The notes under the pieces: model-generated
Databases searched by the model: none
What the model was told of the DNA's origin: nothing
Seen by the model: only the letters and a program-made list of their open reading frames with translations
Position numbers and translations under genes: made by a program
Source of the DNA: Bacteroidia bacterium
Lineage (GTDB): Bacteria; Bacteroidota; Bacteroidia; Cytophagales; Cyclobacteriaceae
Assembly (NCBI GenBank): GCA_043785125.1
Contig: JAYVXP010000212.1
Coordinates: 923 to 64,922 of the forward strand
Reading direction: 5' to 3'
Length of the DNA stretch: 64,000 nucleotides
Shown: positions 8,767 through 36,342 of the stretch, piece after piece
Position numbering within the stretch: the stretch's first letter is position 1
Layout of the letters: the number at the start of each line of letters is the position of its first letter

Positions 8767-9319
8767 AGACCGTCATGATTTCAATTTCTTTTCTCTTCAT
8801 CAACGCATCCACTTTGTTGATGCTCTCATCGGTGAGTTTCTGCACTTGCTCTTCAGCGTCCAAGAGGTCGTCTTCCGCAGCGCCTTTGATTTTTTTCAAT
8901 GATTCATTGGTCTCCTTTCGTATTGCGCGGATGCCTACCTTGCCATGCTCACACTCTTGTCCCACTTGCTTTACGAGTTGTTTTCGTCTTTCTTCTGTCA
9001 ACATGGGAATATTGATGATTACGTGTTGACCGTCATTTTGCGGATTAAGCCCCAGATTGGCACCTAAAATCGCTTTTTCAATTTCCTGGATTAAACTCTT
9101 CTCCCATGGCTTAATAAATATCGTGCGGGCATCAGGTGTGTTCATCGACGACACCTGGTTAAGCGGGGTCATGACACCGTAGTATGATACCATGATGCCG
9201 TCCAGCATGGAAGGATTGGCTTTGCCGGCACGAATCTTGGTGAGCTCATGAGCGACATGATTGAGGGCCTTGTTCATCTGGTCCCTGGCTTCGTCCAGAA
9301 ATAATTCAATTTCTTCCAT
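8765..9319 (-). CDS. frr: Ribosome recycling factor
   Basis: 184 aa with full-length RRF-like sequence (KIRAGKANPSMLDGIMVSYYG..TPLNQVSS, LTEERRKQLVK). Confidence 0.95.
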   Translation of the reverse strand: MEEIELFLDEARDQMNKALNHVAHELTKIRAGKANPSMLDGIMVSYYGVMTPLNQVSSMNTPDARTIFIKPWEKSLIQEIEKAILGANLGLNPQNDGQHVIINIPMLTEERRKQLVKQVGQECEHGKVGIRAIRKETNESLKKIKGAAEDDLLDAEEQVQKLTDESINKVDALMKRKEIEIMTV

Positions 9320-9334
9320 TGATCAGTATTTAAA

Positions 9335-9364
9335 TCAGGATATTCGGGATTTACAGGGATTAAT
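9335..9364 (+). repeat. GGATT periodic array upstream of frr
   Basis: AGGAT 9337, GGGAT 9346, GGGAT 9356 (9-10 nt spacing), 16-45 nt from the frr start. Confidence 0.65.
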
Positions 9365-9412
9365 ACCAATTACAGATTCCGACTCATCAAACTTTTCTTG
9401 CAAACAGTTTTT

Positions 9413-10117
9413 TCAACTAATCAGCGTTCCCGCTTCTTCTCCTTTGGCGATTTTCAACAAGCTTCCTTTTTTGTTCATGTCAAAGACAATGATCGGTAAT
9501 TTGTTTTCCATGCACAAGGTAAACGCCGTCATGTCCATGATGTTGAGATTTTTCTCGTAGGCCTCCTGGAAAGACAACGTTTTGTAACGCACGGCGTCAG
9601 GAAATTTTTCGGGGTCTTTGGTATAAACGCCATCCACCCGCGTACCCTTCAGCACGACATCGGCTTGAATTTCAATGGCCCGTAAACTGGCCGTTGAGTC
9701 GGTCGTGAAATAAGGATTGCCGATACCCGCCCCAAAAATAACAATCCGTCCTTTTTCCAGGTGACGAATCGCCCTGCGTCGGATAAACGGTTCGCACACT
9801 TGCTCCATTTTCATTCCCGACATCAACCGGGTGTACATACCATGCCGCTCGAGCGCACTTTGCAAGGCCATGGCATTGATTACCGTGGCCAACATCCCCA
9901 TGTAGTCCCCCTGCACGCGGTCAATTCCAAGGGCTTCAGCTTGCCCTCCCCGGAAAATATTTCCACCTCCAATAACAATGGCCACCTCAATTCCCTCCTC
10001 TTTTACAGCCTTAATTTCCGAACTGTACTGCTCCAGCACGGCGGGATCAATATTACTGTGTTTCGAGCCGGTCAGCGCTTCGCCGCTGAGTTTGAGGACA
10101 ATGCGTTTGTAGTTCAT
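9413..10117 (-). CDS. pyrH: UMP kinase
   Basis: [41 protein letters not shown]. Canonical frr-pyrH adjacency. Confidence 0.95.
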
Positions 10118-16792: not shown

Positions 16793-18055
16793 ATGAATGC
16801 AAAAGAGATTCTTATTGTGGAAATGGTAGCCAACGGAAGCGATGCTATTTTGCTTGAAGAAAAGTTTGGGGCCCACAACTACCATCCACTACCTGTGGTG
16901 CTCAGCAAAGGCGAAGGTGCTTTTGTTTGGGATGTATCTGGGAGGCGATATTATGATTTTCTTTCCGCATACAGCGCAGTAAACCAGGGACATTGTCACC
17001 CCAGAATTGTCAACGCATTAATCCACCAGGCTAAAGAACTCACCCTCACTTCGCGCGCGTTTTATAACGACAAACTTGGCCTTGCGGAGAAATATGTTTG
17101 TGAAACATTTGGCTATGCAAAAGCGCTTTTCATGAACAGCGGGGCTGAGGCAAATGAAACTGCGATCAAACTCGCACGCAAATGGGGATATACCAAAAAA
17201 GGAATTGCGGAAAATCAGGCCGTGATTGTGGCGGTGAAACATAATTTTCATGGCCGCACCACGACAATTATTTCCGCGTCCTCGGATGATTCGGCAAGAA
17301 AGGATTTTGGGCCTTTTATGCCAGGTTTTGAAATCATTGATTACAACAACATTCCAGCGTTGGAGCAGGCGCTTAGCAATCCCAATGTATGTGGATTATG
17401 GATAGAACCCATCCAGGGGGAAGCGGGAGTATATATTCCCGATGAAGGATACTTAAAAGCTGCTGAGCGACTTTGCCATCGCAATAAAGTGCTTCTGATG
17501 ATGGATGAAATACAAACCGGTATCGGCCGTACAGGAAAGATGCTCGCATCGGACTATGAAAATGTCCGTGCTGATTTATTGATCTTGGGAAAAGCGTTAT
17601 CGGGGGGAATGATGCCTATTTCTTTGGTGCTCGCCGATGATGATGTGATGCTGGTATTGAAGCCGGGCGAACATGGTTCAACGTTTGGAGGGAATCCCCT
17701 CGCCGCTGCGATTGTGATCGAAGCGCTGAAAGTGATAAAAGAGGAAAAACTTGCTGAAAATGCTTTCCAACTTGGAAATCTTTTCCGTGAACGAATGAAA
17801 TTGTTGATTCAGAAAACAAGTCTTGTAACCCAGGTTCGTGGCAAAGGTTTATTAAATGCCATCGTTATTAATGACACACCCGAAAGTGATACAGCCTGGA
17901 ATCTGTGTTTGATGTTTGCGGAGAAGGGACTTTTGGCAAAGCCCACGCATGGAAATATTATTCGGCTTGCGCCTCCGCTGGTTATTAATGAAGAACAACT
18001 GCATGAATGCTGCGACATCATTGAGCAGTGTATTTTGAATTTTGAAAAATTATGA
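16793..18055 (+). CDS. rocD: Ornithine--oxo-acid aminotransferase
   Basis: [45 protein letters not shown]. Class-III aminotransferase with PLP-Lys context [10 protein letters not shown]. Confidence 0.88.
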
Positions 18056-27947: not shown

Positions 27948-29141
27948 TCAAGGCTCAAAAAAACAAACTGATCCACCAACCCATGTTTTGTCTTTGTTAA
28001 ATTTTACGCCGATCATTTCTCCGCGGCTGAGACGAGCCAGATTGGTGACCAGTTCAGGACGGGCTTTCCCATCTTCCCACAAAAACAACAACCGGATCTC
28101 TGCTTTGATAAGACCATCTGGAGCCTGGATCACTGGCGCGTACTGAACCTTTCGTTGCAAAATAAAATTGGCCCGCTCCGTCAACGGAATCAGGTCAAGA
28201 TCTTTTTGGGTAAGATGAAAAATAACACCGCTCCCGGAAAAAGAGAAAAGTGGTTTGAGCACATAGTTTTCGAGGTCGGAAGGAAAGGATGTAAACTCAT
28301 TTAGGAATTTGCACTCAGGGACATATCGGCTATGAATAAACGGCATCATGAATTTACTGATGCGATAAAACCAATTTGGGTGTCCAGCCCATTCGACATC
28401 CACGTCTTCCGTAAGATGGAACTGAAGATTCAGATCAGTTTGTTTTAACAGTTCGTCAAAAATCACCCTATTGTATATTCGATGAATCGGAATACGCCGG
28501 CCCTCTTTGCGATAAAACAATTTCCTTCCTTCCCGCTCTACGTCAGCGAGGTTTACGGGGTCAATACCAGTGAGTTGCTGCGTAATGATAAAGTCGATAG
28601 CGGTGGTTTGTTCCATCGGATTGATTTCCAGCAAGATCACATTTTCGGGTTGGTGGTTACCCAACAAGACTTTCTTGATTTTGTACTGGTAGGCATCTCT
28701 TGACAAACCAAAATGATTCGAAAACGCGGGTGGTATTTCAAAGTGCGCCCGGAATTTTCTGCCGACAAAGTCCTGAAATCCAAAGAGGGAAGGGAATCCC
28801 TGCATTTCTATCAGCTGTGGTTCAATTTCTCCTTCTTCATTTTTTACGATTGCGAAGTCCATGGCCAGAAAAAGTGTGTGTGCCGTTTCATTGGGCACCA
28901 CCAAATTTTTAGGAATTGCCTTCGCAGTCAATTTCTTCAGGTCATTCGATACCAGGAAATCAATGATTTCATCCGAGGCCCTGATTAAATTTTCTTTGAC
29001 AGACCGGGGGACAAAAATGGGGGTTTCTGCTATACGAAATTTAATCTTAAAATCGAAAGATTGGTCGAGGTCTTTCAGGAAGGCCAGGTATTTTTCCTCC
29101 GTAAACAACTGATTGTATCGCTGCCGGACGTATGGGATCAT
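27948..29141 (-). CDS. Hypothetical protein, possibly a divergent (circularly permuted-type) ATP-grasp amidoligase
   Basis: 397 aa, last gene of the amidoligase operon. The ordered motifs IHRIYNRVIFDEL, HPNWFYRISKFMMPF, YVLKPLFSFSGSGV, ILQRKVQYAPV, AEIRLLF and LARLSRGEMIGVKFNKDKTWVGGSV parallel the motif order I recall for COG2308-type ATP-grasp proteins. Confidence 0.45.
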   Translation of the reverse strand: MIPYVRQRYNQLFTEEKYLAFLKDLDQSFDFKIKFRIAETPIFVPRSVKENLIRASDEIIDFLVSNDLKKLTAKAIPKNLVVPNETAHTLFLAMDFAIVKNEEGEIEPQLIEMQGFPSLFGFQDFVGRKFRAHFEIPPAFSNHFGLSRDAYQYKIKKVLLGNHQPENVILLEINPMEQTTAIDFIITQQLTGIDPVNLADVEREGRKLFYRKEGRRIPIHRIYNRVIFDELLKQTDLNLQFHLTEDVDVEWAGHPNWFYRISKFMMPFIHSRYVPECKFLNEFTSFPSDLENYVLKPLFSFSGSGVIFHLTQKDLDLIPLTERANFILQRKVQYAPVIQAPDGLIKAEIRLLFLWEDGKARPELVTNLARLSRGEMIGVKFNKDKTWVGGSVCFFEP

Positions 29142-29151
29142 TTGGCGGTAA

Positions 29152-29952
29152 TTATTGATTCAAGGCTATGCGAAGGAAAGTAGGGATGATGGTCTTATAG
29201 GTCAACTTGAGTTTGTCTGGCTCATTGACCATCACCAACATTTGTTGATATTTTCCTTCTCCATGTTTTTCAACGATCATTTTCTTTTTGTCTTCGCGGA
29301 TGAGATATTTATACATTCCATCGGAGTCCGCTTCGGGATGAAATTGCGTTCCAATGATGGCTTCATTAAAACGAATGGCCATGATGGCGCGCTCCAGGGC
29401 CACAAAGGGGCGGTATTTCTCAAGACAAATAATTTGCCCTCCGCCGGACCAGATTTTTCCTTCATCGGGCTGCACAATCTGATAATCGCGCGAATCAACA
29501 GAATAGAATGGGTCATCCAAATGTGAAAATAAAGGTTCCTTTTGACCTTGTTTTGTTTTATGGATTGGCATTACGCCAAAGGCTGTGCTCTTGCGTTTTG
29601 TAATCCGGGCATAACCATAATAGCGGCAAAAGACCTGGAAGGAATGACAAATGAGAAAGAGATGCTTGCGCTGAAAGGGATTGCTTCGATTGTGGCTAAG
29701 AATACCATCGATCAGCCCAAAATAGTTTTCTTCCCACAAGGAGCCCTCACTGGCCAACGGACTTCCCGGCCCGCCTGAGGAAATATAAGCATCGAATCTG
29801 AGGTCGGCGATTTCATTTTTCAACCTCACATCAAACACCTGAAATTCAACAGTGACGGGAGATTCGGCTTTGAATTGTTCTACGAGCTGAATAATGCACC
29901 GCATCCCCTCATTGATTTCGCCTTCATAGAGATCGAGAATCGCAATACGCAT
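29152..29952 (-). CDS. Class-I glutamine amidotransferase-like protein
   Basis: SSGGPGSP, nucleophile-elbow-like LFLICHSFQ (Cys-His), and GTQFHPEAD (His-Glu of the triad). Confidence 0.75.
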   Translation of the reverse strand: MRIAILDLYEGEINEGMRCIIQLVEQFKAESPVTVEFQVFDVRLKNEIADLRFDAYISSGGPGSPLASEGSLWEENYFGLIDGILSHNRSNPFQRKHLFLICHSFQVFCRYYGYARITKRKSTAFGVMPIHKTKQGQKEPLFSHLDDPFYSVDSRDYQIVQPDEGKIWSGGGQIICLEKYRPFVALERAIMAIRFNEAIIGTQFHPEADSDGMYKYLIREDKKKMIVEKHGEGKYQQMLVMVNEPDKLKLTYKTIIPTFLRIALNQ

Positions 29953-30019
29953 AAGTGGGATAGGTGGTTAAGTGTTGCAATTTGCTGAACAGCAAATCGA
30001 TCTGCAAGCCGTACAAAAA

Positions 30020-31117
30020 TTAGGTGCCTACGAGCGTCTGATCCAGGATGTAGTCGACGACGCTTTCCAGATTTCCGGTTTTCTCATACACCGCCAACTG
30101 CCGGTCTGCCCCTGTGCCTTTGTCCAAAATAGTCTTGACGTATTCCAGTGCATGACGGCTTCCCAAATCATCTACGACATCATCAACGAAATCAAGCAAC
30201 TCCAGGATCAATCCACGGGTGTCAAGCTCTTCCTGTTTGCCAAAGTCAATTAGTTTGCCATCCAAACCATATCGTGAGGCTCTCCATTTATTTTCATTGA
30301 TCAAAGCACGGTTATACATAATGAAACTCATGTTTTTTAGACGGAGCCGATAGAGCTTTACGACCAGGGCCTGAAAAATGGCAGTGATGGCAATCGTCTC
30401 ATCAATCAACATGGGCACATCGCAGATGCGGAATTCGATGGTGTCAAAAAAGGGATGAACGCGCACGTCCCACCAGATTTTCTTGGCGTTATCAATACAC
30501 CGTGTTTTGATCAACAGGTTAACGTAATTCTTAAAGTCATCCCAGTCGTTAAAGTAATCGGGAACTCCCGTACGGGGAAATTTATCAAACACTTTTGTCC
30601 GAAATGATTTGAACCCTGTATTACGGCCTTCCCAAAAAGGAGAATTAGTAGAGAGTGCATAAACATGTGGAAGAAAGTAGCGCACCGTATTCATGATGTG
30701 GATCGCCATGTTCTTGTCGGCAATGCCTACATGAACGTGCAACCCAAATATCAGATTGGACCGCGCAGCCTCCTGCATTTCATTGACAATCTCGTCATAA
30801 CGCGGGTTGGGAGTGATCAATTGTTTACTCCAATGTGAAAATGGGTGTGTGCCGGAAGCTCCGATCTTCAGGCCCAGCCCACCGGCCACATCGCTAACCA
30901 GTTTGCGCAATTTGCGGATGTCCTCATAGGCATGGTCTACATCTTTACAAATGCCTGAACCGACTTCGACAACCGCCTGATGCATTTCAGCCTTCACATG
31001 ATCTTTCAGTACTTCCGATGCAATATCAACGATTTTCTGATCATGCGAAGTCAACTCCCGGGTGGTGGGGTCGATGACCATGTACTCTTCTTCAACACCC
31101 AATGTAAATTTTTCCAT
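30020..31117 (-). CDS. Carboxylate-amine ligase, glutamate-cysteine ligase family 2 (YbdK-like)
   Basis: N-terminus FTLGVEEEYMVID, GTHPFSHW, HVHVGI. Typical GCS2 length of 365 aa. Confidence 0.88.
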   Translation of the reverse strand: MEKFTLGVEEEYMVIDPTTRELTSHDQKIVDIASEVLKDHVKAEMHQAVVEVGSGICKDVDHAYEDIRKLRKLVSDVAGGLGLKIGASGTHPFSHWSKQLITPNPRYDEIVNEMQEAARSNLIFGLHVHVGIADKNMAIHIMNTVRYFLPHVYALSTNSPFWEGRNTGFKSFRTKVFDKFPRTGVPDYFNDWDDFKNYVNLLIKTRCIDNAKKIWWDVRVHPFFDTIEFRICDVPMLIDETIAITAIFQALVVKLYRLRLKNMSFIMYNRALINENKWRASRYGLDGKLIDFGKQEELDTRGLILELLDFVDDVVDDLGSRHALEYVKTILDKGTGADRQLAVYEKTGNLESVVDYILDQTLVGT

Positions 31118-31152
31118 ACTTCACCTTTTGCCTCTCCCGAGAGAAGAAAAAA

Positions 31153-32181
31153 TTATTTTCCTGTTGCTTTCGATTTTGTTTTCTTTTCCGGGCTTGACAC
31201 GACCCCTGCTGCGGGTTTGGTTTCCGCGGTTTTCAAAAATGCTTCGGCCGAATTGATTACAAAGGTTCCCCAGGTAAGGTTATCGCCGCCAGGTTGCTGC
31301 GCCTGAGCGCGATCCACTGCCATCTTTGCGGCATGCTCTACGACCCAATCAAAATTTTCCTGTCCTACGGATTTCAATTCTGCATCGGGTGCCGGATTGC
31401 AGAAGTCGATGGCGTACGGTATGCCATCACGCACTGCCATTTCTACGGTATTAAAATCATAACCGAGAGCCTTATTGAGCGCCAGCACATCGGTGTGTAC
31501 TTTTTTGAGTAATTTTTCTGAGGCAGGTCCTTTGTTTACCACGTAGCGCAGGTGGTGGGGGTTCCGGGGTTCGTATTGCATAATACGAACGTATTTTTGA
31601 CCCAGGCAATAGCACCGGAAATAGTCGTCAAAAACAATTTCTTCTTGCAGCATCATCACCAATTGAGCAGTCTCACGGTAGGAATTAAAAAACTCTTCCA
31701 TATTGCGAAGCTTGTAAACGCTTTTCCATCCGCCTCCAGAGTGTGGTTTCATGTAGGCCGGCCAACCGATGTATTCAAAAATGGTTTCCCAGCTAAGCGG
31801 AAATTTCAAATTACTAAATGAAGCGTCCGTCGTGTCGGGTGGGCGTTCGTGAGAGGGTAGGATTACAGTCTTCGGAACCGCGACTCCAATTTTTACGGCC
31901 AGTGCATTGTTAAAAAACTTTTCATCGGCACTCCACCAAAACGGATTGTTGAGCACGGCTGTTCCGGCGATCGCAGCGTTTTTCAGATAAGCCCGGAAAA
32001 AGGGAACATCTTGTGAGATGCGATCGATGATGACGGCATACTGATCCCCAACTCCCTGCTGCACCATATCTACCATTACCGGCTCAGCCTTAATGTCTTT
32101 GAGGCCCATTTTATTGATGCGCTCAGCAAAGGCAAGTGGAAAAGAGCGCTCCATGCCATGCAGTATCCCTATCTTTTTCAT
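31153..32181 (-). CDS. ATP-grasp domain protein (RimK/glutathione-synthetase-like)
   Basis: WPAYMKPHSGGGWKSVYKL (ATP-binding Lys-Gly loop), MMLQEEI, TVEMAVRDGIPYAIDFCN. Disordered K/S/T-rich C-terminal tail. Confidence 0.75.
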   Translation of the reverse strand: MKKIGILHGMERSFPLAFAERINKMGLKDIKAEPVMVDMVQQGVGDQYAVIIDRISQDVPFFRAYLKNAAIAGTAVLNNPFWWSADEKFFNNALAVKIGVAVPKTVILPSHERPPDTTDASFSNLKFPLSWETIFEYIGWPAYMKPHSGGGWKSVYKLRNMEEFFNSYRETAQLVMMLQEEIVFDDYFRCYCLGQKYVRIMQYEPRNPHHLRYVVNKGPASEKLLKKVHTDVLALNKALGYDFNTVEMAVRDGIPYAIDFCNPAPDAELKSVGQENFDWVVEHAAKMAVDRAQAQQPGGDNLTWGTFVINSAEAFLKTAETKPAAGVVSSPEKKTKSKATGK

Positions 32182-32191
32182 ACGCTATATT

Positions 32192-33127
32192 TCATTTGGA
32201 TAATATCTGATCGATAATAATTTTCTGCATTTTACCCGGTTCCGTAAGAATAACGAGATGTGCTGAATTGGTAAACCAAAATAACTCTTTTTTGTCGGCT
32301 TTTACCTTCCTAAAGTAGTCTTCCGTGATTTTAAAATAAGTCTGATAGTCTTTTGATCCAAGAAAAAAGTAAAGGGGACACCGGATTTCGGGAGCGACGA
32401 CAAAAAAATTCACCATAGAGGCTTCATTAAACAGGTTTAGCCATGTTTTTGACCACGCTTCAACGTAAGCTTTTGGAGGTGGCTTTTGTCCCATCCAGAT
32501 CGCCAGCCATTTCCGATGATAAAAAAGTTGCTCGCCATTCTCAAAGGGTATCCTTACTTTTGCCAACTCCACTATCTCTTCCTGATTTTGGGTCTCTTGT
32601 GCCTTGCCTTTCATTAACGCGAGGGAATTTCTTTCACTTTCCAACTGATAGATCATAGGGCTGACTGCAATGTAGCCGGCCAACAAATCAGGATGCCGGG
32701 CCGCGATGGTCATCCCAAGAAAACCTCCCCAGGAATGCCCCATCAAATAAATCTTATCCTGTGCAAAACGGGATCTCAGATAATTAATCAGTTCTACGGC
32801 ATCTTGCTCAAAAAGCGCGACCGTTAAAGGCACCGGTGAGGCATTGAGCCTTAGCGTTGTTCCACTTTCACGCTGATCCCATTGCACCACCACAAAATGT
32901 TTTTGAAGATCTGCGGTAAATTTTTGGGAGTAGCCAATCGCCGAACTTCCTGGCCCGCCATGCAGAAAAAGCAATACTGGATTGTTGTCACCGAGGCCCT
33001 TTATATTAATCCATTGTTTGATTCCACCAATCATCACCGCCTCACTCACGTTGATTTTATTTATTCCGGATCCCGAAAAGGAGATGGCCATCAGAATAGA
33101 AAGCGTAACAAGGCGACTCATGATCAT
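32192..33127 (-). CDS. Secreted alpha/beta hydrolase (proline-iminopeptidase-like)
   Basis: Start set to the ATG at 33127, which gives a signal peptide. LFLHGGPG oxyanion motif and nucleophile elbow GHSWGG. Confidence 0.8.
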   Translation of the reverse strand: MIMSRLVTLSILMAISFSGSGINKINVSEAVMIGGIKQWINIKGLGDNNPVLLFLHGGPGSSAIGYSQKFTADLQKHFVVVQWDQRESGTTLRLNASPVPLTVALFEQDAVELINYLRSRFAQDKIYLMGHSWGGFLGMTIAARHPDLLAGYIAVSPMIYQLESERNSLALMKGKAQETQNQEEIVELAKVRIPFENGEQLFYHRKWLAIWMGQKPPPKAYVEAWSKTWLNLFNEASMVNFFVVAPEIRCPLYFFLGSKDYQTYFKITEDYFRKVKADKKELFWFTNSAHLVILTEPGKMQKIIIDQILSK

Positions 33128-33135
33128 GGGCTTGA

Positions 33136-33846
33136 TTACTTGATCAATGAGAGATAGTGTGGAAACATTTCTTTCCACGCCGGCCAGTCGTGGGGGGCAT
33201 CGGCTCTTACATCCAACCAATGGTGTATCCCTTTTGCCCTCAGGATATCGGCCATCTTTTCGTTTGCATCCCAGCAAGAATCGTGTGTGCCGGTGCCCAA
33301 CACGACAAATAAGTCTCCATAAAATGGATTTTGTGCCCCGGGAATAAAATCCGGCGGATTATTGAAGTAAACATTGTCGTCATAATATCCATCCATCTGA
33401 CCTTTGATGTCGAATGCTGCCCCCATATTGAAAACATACTTAACCACCTCGGGATGTTTGAAGGCAAAGTTTGTGGCGTGATAGCCGCCGAAACTGCAAC
33501 CCGCAGTAGCAATGCGGCCTACGCCGGTTTCGCGCTGCATCAGGGGTAGCAGTTCCTGAAGTAGCATCTGATCATACCAGATGTGATTAAGCACCCGGTC
33601 AGCAGGATGGATACTTTTGTTGTACCAGCTATCCGCGTCAATCCCATCGGGACAATAAATTTTAACCAATCCGTTGTCCAGGAACCAGGATACACTGTCA
33701 ATCAATTTAAAGTCTTTGTTTTCATTGAACCTGCCCATGGACGTAGGGAAAAGCATAACCGGATAGCCTTGATGTCCAAAGGCCAACACTTCGATGTCGC
33801 GGCTAAGTCGGGGTGAATACCACCGATGATATTGCTCGTGGGGCAT
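33136..33846 (-). CDS. Esterase-family alpha/beta hydrolase (putative-esterase/esterase-D-like)
   Basis: Start set to the ATG at 33846. Nucleophile elbow GCSFGG and C-terminal H in ..APHDWPAW. Confidence 0.75.
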   Translation of the reverse strand: MPHEQYHRWYSPRLSRDIEVLAFGHQGYPVMLFPTSMGRFNENKDFKLIDSVSWFLDNGLVKIYCPDGIDADSWYNKSIHPADRVLNHIWYDQMLLQELLPLMQRETGVGRIATAGCSFGGYHATNFAFKHPEVVKYVFNMGAAFDIKGQMDGYYDDNVYFNNPPDFIPGAQNPFYGDLFVVLGTGTHDSCWDANEKMADILRAKGIHHWLDVRADAPHDWPAWKEMFPHYLSLIK

Positions 33847-33959
33847 GGTTGAAATTTTATTTTGTCGTGCCAGGATATTTCCCTCGGAATAACCTCTATT
33901 TTTGAAGTCCGGCAATCAATACAGCAGGAAGCTAATTCAAAATTTGAGACAATAAAACA

Positions 33960-34796
33960 GTGACCCAGCCTATTTTAAAGGACGCTTCCGCGGATTATAC
34001 TTATCAGGTTGAAAAACTGTCGGGTATTTATTCCAAACTCCTTGACCGGAATGTAGAAGTGGAGATTTTTTTGCCACCTGGTTTTGCTGAATCAGGAAGG
34101 AAATACCCATTACTACTACTCAATGATGGTCAGGATAGCGAAGCCGTTGGACTAAAGGATACCCTGGAGAAATTAGTGGGTGAAAAATCCATCTTGGAAA
34201 TTATCGCAGTGGGCGTGACGGCGGGAGACCGCATGCAGGAATATGGGGTCGCGTCAAAAAATGATTATCAGGGTCGTGGGCGGAAAGCAAAAAAGTATTC
34301 GAAGTACATCATCAGTGAGTTGATACCCTATTTAATATATCGTTATCCCATTTCGCCAATAGCAACGGACCATGCCATGGCAGGGTATTCCCTGGGTGGT
34401 TTGTCGGCAATGGATATAGTTTGGAATAACCCAGAGGTATTTACCAAGTTGGGTGTTTTCAGTGGATCATTTTGGTGGCGCAAACGCGACACGCAAAGCC
34501 GGTTTTACTCCGACTATCGCGATCGATTGATGCACCTTCAGGTGCGGAAGGGTAAATTAAAACCAGGTCTGAAGTTCTGGTTTCAAACCGGCACACAAGA
34601 CGAGTGGGGTGACCGAAATGGGAATGGCATCATTGACTCCATCGATGATACCCTTGATCTGATTGCTGAACTGACCAAAAAGGGCTATCGTCCTTTTCAG
34701 GATATAGGCTATCTGGAAATCCAAGATGGCAAACACAATCCCGAGACGTGGGCTGAGGCCCTGCCCATATTTTTGATCTGGGCATTTAAATGCTGA
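33960..34796 (+). CDS. Esterase-family alpha/beta hydrolase (enterochelin-esterase-like)
   Basis: GTG start. YPLLLLNDGQD, nucleophile elbow GYSLGG, FSGSFWW, GKHNPETW. Confidence 0.75.
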   Translation: MTQPILKDASADYTYQVEKLSGIYSKLLDRNVEVEIFLPPGFAESGRKYPLLLLNDGQDSEAVGLKDTLEKLVGEKSILEIIAVGVTAGDRMQEYGVASKNDYQGRGRKAKKYSKYIISELIPYLIYRYPISPIATDHAMAGYSLGGLSAMDIVWNNPEVFTKLGVFSGSFWWRKRDTQSRFYSDYRDRLMHLQVRKGKLKPGLKFWFQTGTQDEWGDRNGNGIIDSIDDTLDLIAELTKKGYRPFQDIGYLEIQDGKHNPETWAEALPIFLIWAFKC

Positions 34797-34800
34797 AATC

Positions 34801-35412
34801 ATGCAGAATCTTGACACCATTATTTTTGACCTGGGTGGCGTACTCATTGATTGGAATCCTCGGCACCTGTACCGCAAGATTTTTAAAACCGAGAAAGAGA
34901 TCGACTGGTTTCTGGAAAACGTTTGCACAACTGAATGGAATGATCAGCAAGATGCCGGCAGATCATTTGCAGAAGCGACGCAAGAGTTGCTTCAGAAATT
35001 TCCGCAACACAAAGAACCCATCATGGCCTGGTTTGGGCGATGGACCGAGACGATCAGTGGCCCGATTCAAGAAACGGTTGAGATATTAAGATCCATACGG
35101 GAGTCCAAAAAATATAAACTCTATGCGCTCACCAACTGGTCTGCGGAAACATTTCCGTGGGCATTGGAAAATTTCGAATTTCTACGGTGGTTTGAAGGCA
35201 TTGCCGTTTCCGGAATCGAAAAAACACGGAAGCCGCATCCTGAGTTCTATCAAATTTTATTTGATCGGTATGCCATACAACCTTCGCGGGCGATATTGAT
35301 TGATGACAACCTTAAGAATATTGTGGGAGCCAACCGTCTGGGTTTGGGAACCATACATTTTCAATCGCCGGAACAATTAAGAGGGGAATTGAGAAGGAGG
35401 GAAATTGTTTGA
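34801..35412 (+). CDS. HAD-superfamily hydrolase
   Basis: Motif I IIFDLGGVLIDW, LTNWS, and the late DD in LIDDNLKN. Starts 4 nt after the esterase stop. Confidence 0.8.
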   Translation: MQNLDTIIFDLGGVLIDWNPRHLYRKIFKTEKEIDWFLENVCTTEWNDQQDAGRSFAEATQELLQKFPQHKEPIMAWFGRWTETISGPIQETVEILRSIRESKKYKLYALTNWSAETFPWALENFEFLRWFEGIAVSGIEKTRKPHPEFYQILFDRYAIQPSRAILIDDNLKNIVGANRLGLGTIHFQSPEQLRGELRRREIV

Positions 35413-35475: not shown

Positions 35476-36342
35476 TTAATCGGGTTCGATATGGATCAGA
35501 ACATTTCCGAGTTCAGGTATTGCTGATTTCAAAGTATCCTTCAGTTGATGGGCTATTGCGTGTCCCTGCTTGACGGAGATGTCAGCACTCACCGTAGCGT
35601 GTAAATCGACGTGATAGATCATACCCGCTTTTCGAACTAAGCATTTCTCCGTACCGACAACTCCATTCACTTCTTGTGATACCTTCCGGATATCCCTCAC
35701 CAGGTCATCATATACATGTTCATCCATGATTTCTCCAAGCGCGGGTCTGAAGATGAAGTAACAATTGTAAAGAATAAACCCGGATGCAAACAAGGCCGCC
35801 CAGTCGTCGGCTGACTCGTAGCCTTTGCCTAATATGAGAGCGATGGAAATTCCGATGAACGCTGCAATGGAGGTAATTGCGTCACTTCGGTGATGCCATG
35901 CGTCAGCTTTTAGGGCCGAACTATTTGTTTCCTTGCTTTTTCGCATGACTAACCGATAGGAAAGTTCCTTCCATAGGATGATTACTCCAAGAATGATCAG
36001 CGTATAGGCTTTGGGTAACTCGTGTGGCGTGCCGATATTTTTGATGCTTTCATAGGCAATAACTGTTGCAGAAGTAATCAGAAAGCCCACGACCAGAAAA
36101 GTAACAAGGGGTTCGGCACGACCATGTCCATAAGGATGATTGTTGTCGGGAGGACGGCTTGCATATTTCAGTCCGAATAGAACAAGCAGGGAAGAGAAGA
36201 TGTCCCCGGTCGATTCGATGGCATCGGCGATTAAAGCGTAAGAATTACCAAAGTAGCCCGTCAACCCTTTAATAATGGCCAGACCGGTATTGCCGAATAT
36301 GCTGAAATACGTTGTCTTGATAGCGGTCTGATCTTTATTCAT
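35476..36342 (-). CDS. Cation diffusion facilitator family transporter
   Basis: Six TM helices with ALIADAIESTGD and HHRSDAITS metal-site motifs. C-terminal cytoplasmic domain. Confidence 0.9.
   Translation of the reverse strand: MNKDQTAIKTTYFSIFGNTGLAIIKGLTGYFGNSYALIADAIESTGDIFSSLLVLFGLKYASRPPDNNHPYGHGRAEPLVTFLVVGFLITSATVIAYESIKNIGTPHELPKAYTLIILGVIILWKELSYRLVMRKSKETNSSALKADAWHHRSDAITSIAAFIGISIALILGKGYESADDWAALFASGFILYNCYFIFRPALGEIMDEHVYDDLVRDIRKVSQEVNGVVGTEKCLVRKAGMIYHVDLHATVSADISVKQGHAIAHQLKDTLKSAIPELGNVLIHIEPD

Follow-up and report, generated by a model that had tools for sequence, protein, structure and literature searches.

A conserved Bacteroidota gene cluster and putative operon that pairs a predicted permuted ATP-grasp ligase with an amidotransferase-fold protein

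Gene content and conservation of the cluster

We analysed a cluster of eight genes in a 64,000-nucleotide (nt) stretch of a Bacteroidia bacterium genome (Cytophagales, Cyclobacteriaceae; assembly GCA_043785125.1, contig JAYVXP010000212.1, positions 923 to 64,922), hereafter called the window. Six minus-strand genes form a candidate operon. In order of transcription, they encode Est1 (33136-33846), a PF00756-family serine esterase; ABH2 (32192-33127), an S33, proline-iminopeptidase-like alpha/beta hydrolase that is predicted to be exported; AGr (31153-32181), a predicted classical ATP-grasp ligase of the RimK/LysX/Ddl-like assemblage; GCS2 (30020-31117), a YbdK-type carboxylate-amine ligase with a glutamine-synthetase fold; GAT (29152-29952), a class-I glutamine-amidotransferase (GATase1)-fold protein with an intact Cys-His-Glu triad; and U397 (27948-29141), a 397-residue protein that we predict to be a permuted ATP-grasp carboxylate-amine ligase. 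A second PF00756-family serine esterase, Est3 (33960-34796, plus strand), is transcribed divergently from the operon across a 113-bp spacer (33847-33959) that is presumably a shared control region. Est3 is followed by HAD (34801-35412, plus strand), a HAD-IA phosphatase-like hydrolase. All eight open reading frames (ORFs) were recovered with the coordinates, strands, gaps and divergent spacer reported by a first-pass annotation of the window, and a public metagenome contig that encodes identical proteins carries the same gene calls.

The intergenic gaps from Est1 to U397, recomputed from the coordinates, are 8, 10, 35, 67 and 10 nt. Promoter-like and terminator-like sites were no more numerous than expected by chance in a site scan. 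Gaps of 8-67 nt and terminator-like sites that are not in excess are consistent with a single Est1-to-U397 transcript. The first-pass annotation had considered that the genes might be transcribed separately, a possibility that gains no support from the tiny gaps, the terminator counts or the overlap of GAT and U397 in many genomes. The control region, the operon and the window as a whole gave no Rfam match, riboswitch or tRNA. The GC content of the cluster (0.44-0.47) is similar to that of its flanks, which lends no support to a horizontal-transfer island. Neighbouring genes in the window include the housekeeping genes ribD and prmC, the latter lying convergently and directly after U397.

To describe the conservation of the cluster, we used the best 80 of at least 600 matching stretches from a scan of one genome per species. 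These loci belong to Cyclobacteriaceae, other Cytophagales, Ohtaekwangia, Hymenobacter, Dyadobacter, Spirosoma and relatives, Chitinophagales, Saprospiraceae and Lewinella. Gene presence was scored by tblastn with the window proteins, with denominators that count the loci with enough upstream sequence. GAT is present in 67 of 74 loci (91%), directly upstream of U397, followed in frequency by GCS2 (54 of 71), AGr (48 of 69), Est3 (41 of 64) and Est1 (40 of 66). ABH2 (15 of 66) and HAD (15 of 60) are much rarer.

We further classified the architecture of 60 loci that have at least 7 kb of sequence upstream of U397. The most common arrangements upstream of U397 are Est3 divergent from Est1-AGr-GCS2-GAT (23 loci) and Est3 divergent from Est1-ABH2-AGr-GCS2-GAT (13 loci). 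The full set, with or without ABH2, is thus found in 36 of the 60 loci, in Cyclobacteriaceae, other Cytophagales, Hymenobacter, Dyadobacter, other Spirosomataceae and some Chitinophagales. Smaller arrangements include GCS2-GAT (6 loci), GAT only (5 loci), AGr-GCS2-GAT (4 loci), U397 with none of the genes (4 loci) and other single cases (5 loci). The divergent orientation of Est3 and Est1 is kept in at least 36 loci, and esterases without AGr were found in none of the 60. The cluster is modular, with a GAT-U397 core to which GCS2 and the Est3/Est1-AGr unit are usually attached.

Ortholog identity across families ranges from 50 to 90%. Down to about 50% protein identity, and in several families that span at least two orders, gene order and orientation persist between flanking genes that are entirely different. 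The recurrence of the same gene order between differing flanks implies that the adjacency is not due to chance. Comparative sequence analysis identifies Est1-(ABH2)-AGr-GCS2-GAT-U397 as a genuine, vertically conserved Bacteroidota gene cluster and predicted operon.

These data bear out several proposals of the first-pass annotation. It had asked whether the genes are conserved together, and dozens of genomes in several families share the gene order. The active-site motifs that it had pointed out, namely GCSFGG, GHSWGG and GYSLGG in the hydrolases and the ICHSFQ...QFHPE context of the Cys-His-Glu triad in GAT, are present and kept in 37-67 syntenic orthologs. Of the hydrolases that it had described beside the ligases, Est1 and Est3 travel with AGr; ABH2 and HAD occur in about a quarter of loci and probably do not belong to the pathway. 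Its suggestion that the cluster might also be sought in Cyanobacteria found no support.

Several other genes adjoin U397 or the cluster in subsets of the related loci. An ORF of about 190 residues (cluster c9), which has no Pfam match and is missing from the window, is the next gene after U397, with the same orientation, in 10 related loci, at about +1190 from the U397 start (L016, L017, L020, L022 and L025 are examples). U397 is immediately followed on the same strand by a class-III aminotransferase gene (PF00202) in Dyadobacter and other Spirosomataceae, at about +1160 to +1240 from the U397 start (L039, L040, L041, L043, L048, L054, L056, L068 and L074). An ornithine-aminotransferase-like paralog occurs near the cluster in Cyclobacteriaceae, including a copy in the window (16793-18055, plus strand) about 11 kb away. 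We rejected these aminotransferases as general evidence for a link to ornithine or polyamine metabolism because the two groups are different paralogs with 32% identity. In some Chitinophagales, genes are found between GCS2 and GAT that resemble a metal-dependent amidohydrolase, an amidase and a repeat protein (one each). Their products appear to be exported on inspection of the sequences, and we judged them to be unrelated insertions.

Families and folds of the encoded proteins

U397 has a large number of relatives and no match to Pfam, NCBIfam or PDB in sequence searches. A homolog search returned at least 8000 candidates, in which all named matches are annotated as 'hypothetical', and a search of 50%-identity representatives identified relatives in 1278 clusters at an expectation value (E) of 1e-3 or below. 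An AlphaFold model of U397 built on 32 homologs has a mean predicted local distance difference test (pLDDT) score of 89.4 and a predicted template modelling (pTM) score of 0.89. The best Foldseek matches of this model are glutathione synthetases, including 1m0w from yeast (E 8.2e-13), 8fbz (query template modelling score, TMq, 0.65) and the human enzyme 2hgs (E 2.4e-10); values against the yeast and human enzymes span E 8e-13 to 2e-10 and TMq 0.59-0.65. Further matches are nematode glutathione-synthetase-like effectors, the fungal enzyme Cp1B (9cjn) and 3n6x (E 5.5e-12), which was deposited in PDB as a 'putative glutathionylspermidine synthase'. Matches to classical ATP-grasp structures are marginal (E > 0.1, template modelling (TM) score 0.13), as would be expected if U397 shares the permuted topology of eukaryotic glutathione synthetase.

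We aligned 58 diverse family members with 27-52% identity and used the resulting profile in sequence comparisons. Residues D95, E112, R225, K263, E348, R350 and R370 are invariant in this alignment, and K296, G303 and G305 are nearly so. This pattern of Lys, Glu and Arg residues with a glycine-rich stretch is compatible with a working ATP-grasp site. In hmmsearch, the family profile matched Escherichia coli YgiC (E 8.6e-5) and 3n6x (E 1.5e-3). The hhalign comparison with YgiC reached 93.8% probability and aligned YVLKPLFSF-G-GV to YVVKPIFSREGANV, in a segment that includes Lys296 and the Gly-rich stretch. U397 did not reach the cut-off of the GSP_synth family (PF03738; E 0.2, 11.3 bits versus 29.3), the only Pfam family found at E ≤ 10. 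Alignment to GspS by hhalign was not significant, and neither U397 nor its family profile had a PDB sequence match to any glutathione synthetase. By model and profile evidence, U397 is assigned to the permuted ATP-grasp assemblage that includes eukaryotic glutathione synthetase and GspS/YgiC, and represents a predicted new sequence family inside a known fold and mechanistic class. The first-pass annotation had suspected a cryptic ATP-grasp-like protein in this ORF, as the fold and the YgiC profile match now indicate.

Some U397 relatives are unusually long or are found in other contexts. We ruled out that the long homologs are fusions to GAT: one is an apparent fusion to a sodium:solute symporter family (SSF) transporter, and the others have signal-peptide-like N-terminal extensions that resemble no cluster protein. 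One subfamily (P0140, P0141, P0184 and P0200) has an Ala-rich N-terminal extension of about 160-190 residues with a signal-peptide-like start, an unusual feature in a ligase that depends on ATP. A large PGM1-like ATP-grasp protein is encoded next to P0140 (locus L085). P0124, of 870 residues, joins a sodium:solute symporter (PF00474) to a U397 homolog, the two being either fused or called together; the arrangement hints that some lineages import a small substrate, and could also be a gene-calling artefact. Two distant relatives with 30-37% identity are found in neighbourhoods that look like those of natural-product genes. One (L086) adjoins a radical-SAM protein and an uncharacterised 346-residue protein, while the other (L089) has an amine oxidase, an O-methyltransferase and an MFS transporter nearby, amid IS elements. 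Other contexts of the distant relatives also include an MFS_3 transporter gene.

GAT matches PF00117 above the gathering threshold (35.1 bits versus 22.8). The motifs SGGPG, ICHSFQ and QFHPE are kept in 67 orthologs, which implies that the Cys-His-Glu triad is under selection, and residues C102 and H205, a near-invariant E207 and SGGPG are conserved in alignments of 31-67 orthologs. This combination identifies GAT as a putative class-I triad amidotransferase-fold protein. Its chemistry is less clear from sequence, and glutaminase, amidase and acyl-transfer activities are all possible. GAT had no Pfam or NCBIfam match to peptidase C26 or gamma-glutamyl hydrolase (PuuD-like) at E ≤ 0.01.

The association between GAT and U397 is tight. 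In the tblastn loci, the commonest spacing is a 4-nt stop/start overlap. The pair is also found by itself between recF/dciA and thiS/thiC (L087), where U397 is 40% and GAT 44% identical to the window proteins. In one of the loci in which U397 lacks GAT (L031), a divergent upstream gene (9310-9876, minus strand) encodes a 188-residue protein that looks by sequence like a canonical PabA/TrpG-type GATase1. This neighbour is probably a coincidence.

GCS2 is well assigned at the family level. It matches PF04107 with 219 bits (E 8.8e-65, cut-off 21) and the NCBIfam model PRK13515, 'carboxylate-amine ligase', with 533 bits (cut-off 371). Residues 7-11 (GVEEE) fit the GhExE Mg/ATP-site signature (defined in PMC2588565), and GCS2 shares 29% identity with E. 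coli YbdK across 328 residues (E 1e-57). Its best score against the glutamate-cysteine ligase equivalogs (PRK13517.x, PRK13518, TIGR02048 and TIGR01436) is 357 bits versus a cut-off of 409, and the others are further below. With PF04107 in GCS2, PF00117 in GAT and PF00756 in Est1 and Est3 all above their cut-offs, the GCS2, amidotransferase and esterase calls of the first-pass annotation hold. It had also allowed that each ligase might prove to be an enzyme with an assigned housekeeping role, and none reaches the cut-off of such an enzyme, whether RimK or a GshA-type glutamate-cysteine ligase.

AGr is more difficult to place. It has no Pfam match even at E ≤ 10, no NCBIfam glutathione-synthase match at E ≤ 0.01, and weak PDB sequence matches to Ddl and biotin carboxylases. 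It scores below the cut-off of TIGR00768, the RimK family (24.9 bits, E 1.1e-5; cut-off 143.4). A low-confidence structure model (pLDDT 62), which we did not use to infer specificity, gave Foldseek matches to Ddl, MdnC, PsnB, ArgX/LysX and RimK (E 6e-10 to 1e-8, TM 0.4-0.5), all of which are classical ATP-grasp ligases. The hhalign comparisons with E. coli RimK (E 0.021, 2% probability) and GshB (E 0.37 over 96 columns) were insignificant. The ATP-grasp identity of AGr is thus a weak assignment, drawn from a sub-threshold TIGR00768 match and the fold search of a pLDDT 62 model. This evidence weakly favours the ATP-grasp part of the RimK-like call in the first-pass annotation.

Orthologs of AGr are 57-91% identical, with mixed annotations ('RimK family', 'glutathione synthase' and hypothetical), and contain the invariant motifs KPHxGGGWKS, QEE and DFCN, which we assigned by eye as candidates for the Lys/Gly-rich loop and the C-terminal acidic/Asn metal-site motifs of an ATP-grasp fold. 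The C-terminal 22-40 residues or so (window 31153-31220, minus strand) are a low-complexity Lys/Ser/Thr/Pro-rich tail (...KPAAGVVSSPEKKTKSKATGK) that varies between orthologs and is predicted to be disordered (pLDDT < 50). One AGr homolog with 79% identity (P0369) is deposited under the cyanobacterium Oscillatoria amoena. Because of this level of identity, the sequence probably comes from a Bacteroidota contig in a non-axenic assembly, and it is not evidence for the cluster in Cyanobacteria.

Est1 and Est3 are predicted to be active serine hydrolases. Est3 matches PF00756 with 101.5 bits (E 8.3e-29) and Est1 with 28.8 bits, against a cut-off of 22. The GCSFGG nucleophile and HDW histidine of Est1 are kept in 37 orthologs, and the GYSLGG nucleophile and histidine of Est3 are likewise conserved. 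In PDB, the two proteins are related to feruloyl esterases, to IroE/Fes-type hydrolases including enterochelin esterase and, weakly (E 0.006-0.23), to S-formylglutathione hydrolase. Est3 is far below the cut-off of the S-formylglutathione hydrolase model TIGR02821 (16.9 versus 281.7 bits).

ABH2 and HAD probably lie outside the pathway. ABH2 matches Abhydrolase_1 (E 1.2e-16) and, below the cut-off, TIGR01250 (E 4e-18). A hydrophobic, signal-like N-terminal segment is found in 16 of 16 ABH2 orthologs and in no other cluster protein; the start is uncertain by two codons (309 residues in the public gene call and 311 in the first-pass annotation). A signal-bearing hydrolase in the middle of an operon with otherwise cytoplasmic products is confined to a Cyclobacteriaceae-like subset of the loci, and ABH2 is probably a lineage-specific insertion. 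HAD matches PF00702 and PF13419. The loci that carry it are all close relatives, and it is probably a lineage-specific passenger. Beside HAD in the window, an ORF at 35476-36342 (minus strand) resembles a cation diffusion facilitator by sequence. It is the sole transporter near the cluster and is not kept with it; other genes occupy that position in related genomes.

A predicted pathway and its alternatives

The cluster probably makes a small peptide-like metabolite, which we would read as a gamma-glutamyl-type peptide. We propose, with a probability of roughly 45%, that the operon assembles a small amide-linked metabolite in the cytoplasm, independently of the ribosome or a non-ribosomal peptide synthetase, through the stepwise action of GCS2, AGr, U397 and GAT, with GAT acting as a glutaminase. 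The folds and families described above are the basis from which we infer the substrates, the order of steps and action on one molecule. GCS2 would phosphorylate a carboxylate, by family precedent the gamma-carboxyl of glutamate, and join it to an amine. AGr would then extend the product by a further residue through an acyl-phosphate, and U397 would activate the remaining, C-terminal carboxylate. GAT may form a two-protein unit with U397 and supply ammonia from glutamine to yield a terminal carboxamide, a step to which we commit only weakly. The substrate of Est1 and Est3 would presumably be a derivative of the product (an ester, thioester or peptide), which they would hydrolyse.

We lean slightly and weakly towards a GAT glutaminase that feeds U397, over an amidase, because PF00117 is matched above its gathering threshold and the SGGPGSP, C..Q and QFHPE motifs are those of amidotransferases. 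Several observations weigh against the proposed pathway. The GATase1 fold is shared by MetA homoserine O-acyltransferases, in which the triad serves to form an acyl-enzyme, and the best PDB profile matches of GAT are a MetA acyltransferase (2vdj, E 9e-5) and an uncharacterised COG0518 protein (3l7n, E 1e-3). The nucleophile elbow of GAT (LICHS) departs from the canonical GxCxG, and no GAT-U397 fusion was found among the 150 family representatives listed. The similarity to MetA and the lack of a fusion make the glutaminase role tentative. In addition, about a quarter of the loci have no GCS2 or no AGr nearby, and 4 of 60 loci have U397 but not GAT, so the four enzymes need not share one molecule in every lineage. 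The low confidence of the AGr model also counts against the pathway, as does the role given to the esterases, which is a guess.

The strongest alternative, which we consider possible though rather doubtful, retains the pathway and gives GAT the opposite role. GAT would be a thiol amidase that hydrolyses the product of U397. The two would then be a synthetase/amidase couple, comparable to the fused GspS of E. coli, that sets the level of a peptidyl-amine conjugate such as a peptide-polyamine. The E. coli gss gene, annotated as a fused amidase/synthetase, provides a precedent for tightly coupled antagonistic activities, and YgiC, the only characterised U397 relative within reach of sequence methods, is a peptide-spermidine ligase (PMC12568646). 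Iyer et al. (2008) also read GAT-like proteins beside carboxylate-amine ligases as thiol peptidases (PMC2588565). Against this, GAT lacks a match to peptidase C26 or any other peptidase family at E ≤ 0.01, and its motifs resemble those of true glutaminases; U397 itself is under the GSP_synth threshold (E 0.2) and does not align significantly to GspS. The amine oxidase and MFS transporters next to distant U397 relatives would suit an amine conjugate, as would the class-III aminotransferase after U397 in Spirosomataceae, but only one lineage shows the aminotransferase link, and the two groups of aminotransferases represent separate paralogs.

A second alternative is that the ligases modify a protein or a ribosomally synthesised peptide, by adding an amino-acid tail or tag at the C-terminus or on a side chain in the manner of RimK on ribosomal protein S6 or LysX/ArgX on the carrier protein LysW, with GAT and the esterases as trimming enzymes. 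The best structural neighbours of AGr, namely RimK, LysX/ArgX and the macrocyclases MdnC and PsnB, do have protein or peptide substrates, some AGr orthologs are annotated as RimK family, and the Pup ligase has its closest relatives among GCS2-type enzymes (PMC2588565). We nevertheless regard protein tagging as improbable. The fine ranking of neighbours is unreliable for a pLDDT 62 model, AGr scores 24.9 versus 143 bits on the RimK family with an insignificant hhalign comparison, and the relatives of U397 act on small molecules. Moreover, the gaps of 8-67 nt leave no room for an ORF encoding a small tag, carrier or precursor.

Very unlikely, in our view, is a catabolic route in which GCS2 gamma-glutamylates an amine and GAT later removes the glutamate, as part of amine utilisation. 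PuuA and PuuD exemplify this logic, in which a carboxylate-amine ligase is paired with a GATase1-fold hydrolase, and 6 of 60 loci contain GCS2-GAT-U397 without AGr or esterases. The constant partner of GAT, however, is U397 and not GCS2, the neighbourhood has no conserved oxidase, dehydrogenase or amine transporter, and two extra ATP-consuming ligases make little catabolic sense. That the genes are adjacent through phylogenetic inertia and share no function is barely credible, for although modules can each occur alone and ABH2 and HAD are evident passengers, order and orientation are kept to about 50% identity over several families while flanks change, and the genes overlap or lie close together.

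A physiological core metabolite, as opposed to a sporadic secondary or antibiotic-type product, is indicated by the high conservation, unremarkable GC content, housekeeping neighbours and lack of conserved genes for transport, regulation or resistance; across related loci, we found no conserved transporter or regulator near the cluster. A more speculative extension, which we think has little chance of being right, is that the cluster makes a glutathione-like cysteinyl peptide with a C-terminus that is amidated or joined to a polyamine. U397 and GAT would then be a two-protein amidoligase of a kind not recognised before, dependent on glutamine and based on a permuted ATP-grasp, with U397 as a widespread relative of the eukaryotic glutathione synthetase fold. 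Glutathione amide occurs in purple sulfur bacteria (PMC6282198), and the literature on glutathione amide that we searched names no amidating enzyme. A thiol product is disfavoured by the position of GCS2 under all glutamate-cysteine ligase thresholds and by the conserved neighbours of the cluster loci, among which we found no thiol-specific genes (disulfide reductase, glutaredoxin). Also against it, Bacteroidetes are reported to lack gshA and gshB and are predicted to use bacillithiol (PMC6282198).

Amidoligase neighbourhoods with ATP-grasp proteins, glutamine-synthetase-fold ligases and GAT-like proteins are of a known kind, for which glutathione-like peptides have been predicted (PMC2588565; PMC4431377). 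Our literature searches on GCS2/YbdK with ATP-grasp and amidotransferase proteins, whose coverage did not extend to a 2009 amidoligase survey, returned no description of this cluster. Three features appear to be new: a very large permuted ATP-grasp family without a family model, its near-obligate coupling to a GATase1 and the six-gene Bacteroidota architecture. The operon is common, with at least 600 reference genomes matched by U397, and well conserved in soil, freshwater and other environmental Bacteroidota. Its four central enzymes have no assigned substrate, and it is the most conserved of them, U397, that has no family model. If the product is glutathione-like or a peptidyl-amine, the cluster would supply a missing piece of redox or polyamine biochemistry in a phylum presumed to use bacillithiol. 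If GAT feeds ammonia to U397, the pair would be a new build of glutamine-dependent amidoligase. A more conservative outcome would still be of practical use: with a defined new ATP-grasp family that has GATase1 as its fixed partner, thousands of 'hypothetical proteins' could be better annotated. Cultured carriers exist, including Dyadobacter jiangsuensis DSM 29057, D. soli DSM 25329, Larkinella humicola and Hymenobacter polaris, which makes the question of the product directly testable.

Comparison with known systems

Individual proteins of the cluster resemble members of several characterised systems. RimK is among the structural neighbours of AGr, and some sources annotate AGr as a RimK family protein, but AGr is far below the TIGR00768 cut-off and has a different genomic context. 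In CarA/CarB and MurT/GatD, a GATase1 gene lies beside the gene for an enzyme that uses ATP to form an acyl- or carboxy-phosphate. The tight coupling of the GAT and U397 genes fits this pattern. GAT, however, is not an ortholog of CarA or GatD, with only weak, sub-threshold NCBIfam matches, and U397 differs from CarB and MurT in being a permuted ATP-grasp.

The 3n6x protein (Mfla_0391) represents a bacterial type of circularly permuted ATP-grasp like U397, and was matched by both the structure and the family profile. Operon partners of this type are said, in 2009 work by Iyer and colleagues, to be an alpha-helical domain and transglutaminase-like and NTN-hydrolase/proteasome-like proteins. Such partners are absent by Pfam from the eight proteins of our cluster, which instead include a GATase1, GCS2, a classical ATP-grasp and esterases.

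Eukaryotic glutathione synthetase (1m0w, 2hgs and 8fbz) and Cp1B (9cjn) have the same permuted fold as the U397 model and are collinear with it over the whole chain (E 8e-13 to 1e-9, TMq 0.58-0.65). U397 is only 12-14% identical to these proteins and about 80 residues shorter. Enzymes of the glutathione-synthetase-fold class ligate the carboxylate of a peptide or acid to an amine via an acyl-phosphate, and the fungal ATP-grasp Cp1B catalyses amide-bond formation in the biosynthesis of E-64 (PMC12568646). YgiC/YjfC (PDB 7uk8) are the only characterised proteins reached by U397 sequence profiles. The homology to YgiC is local, covering about 70 of 397 U397 residues, and YgiC adjoins ygiB and has no GATase partner, whereas U397 is coupled to GAT.

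The E. coli GshA/GshB/GspS pathway to glutathionylspermidine provides the closest match in enzyme logic, which is one-to-one. It combines a glutamine-synthetase-superfamily ligase (like GCS2), a classical ATP-grasp (like AGr), a GspS/YgiC-related ligase (like U397) and a Cys-nucleophile amidase coupled to the ligase (like GAT). None of the four cluster proteins is orthologous to its E. coli counterpart, and the genes are clustered here and scattered in E. coli. GAT has a GATase1 fold and not that of the amidase domain fused in GspS. With an ammonia donor in place, the enzyme set of the cluster would map onto the synthesis of a glutathione-amide-like peptide.

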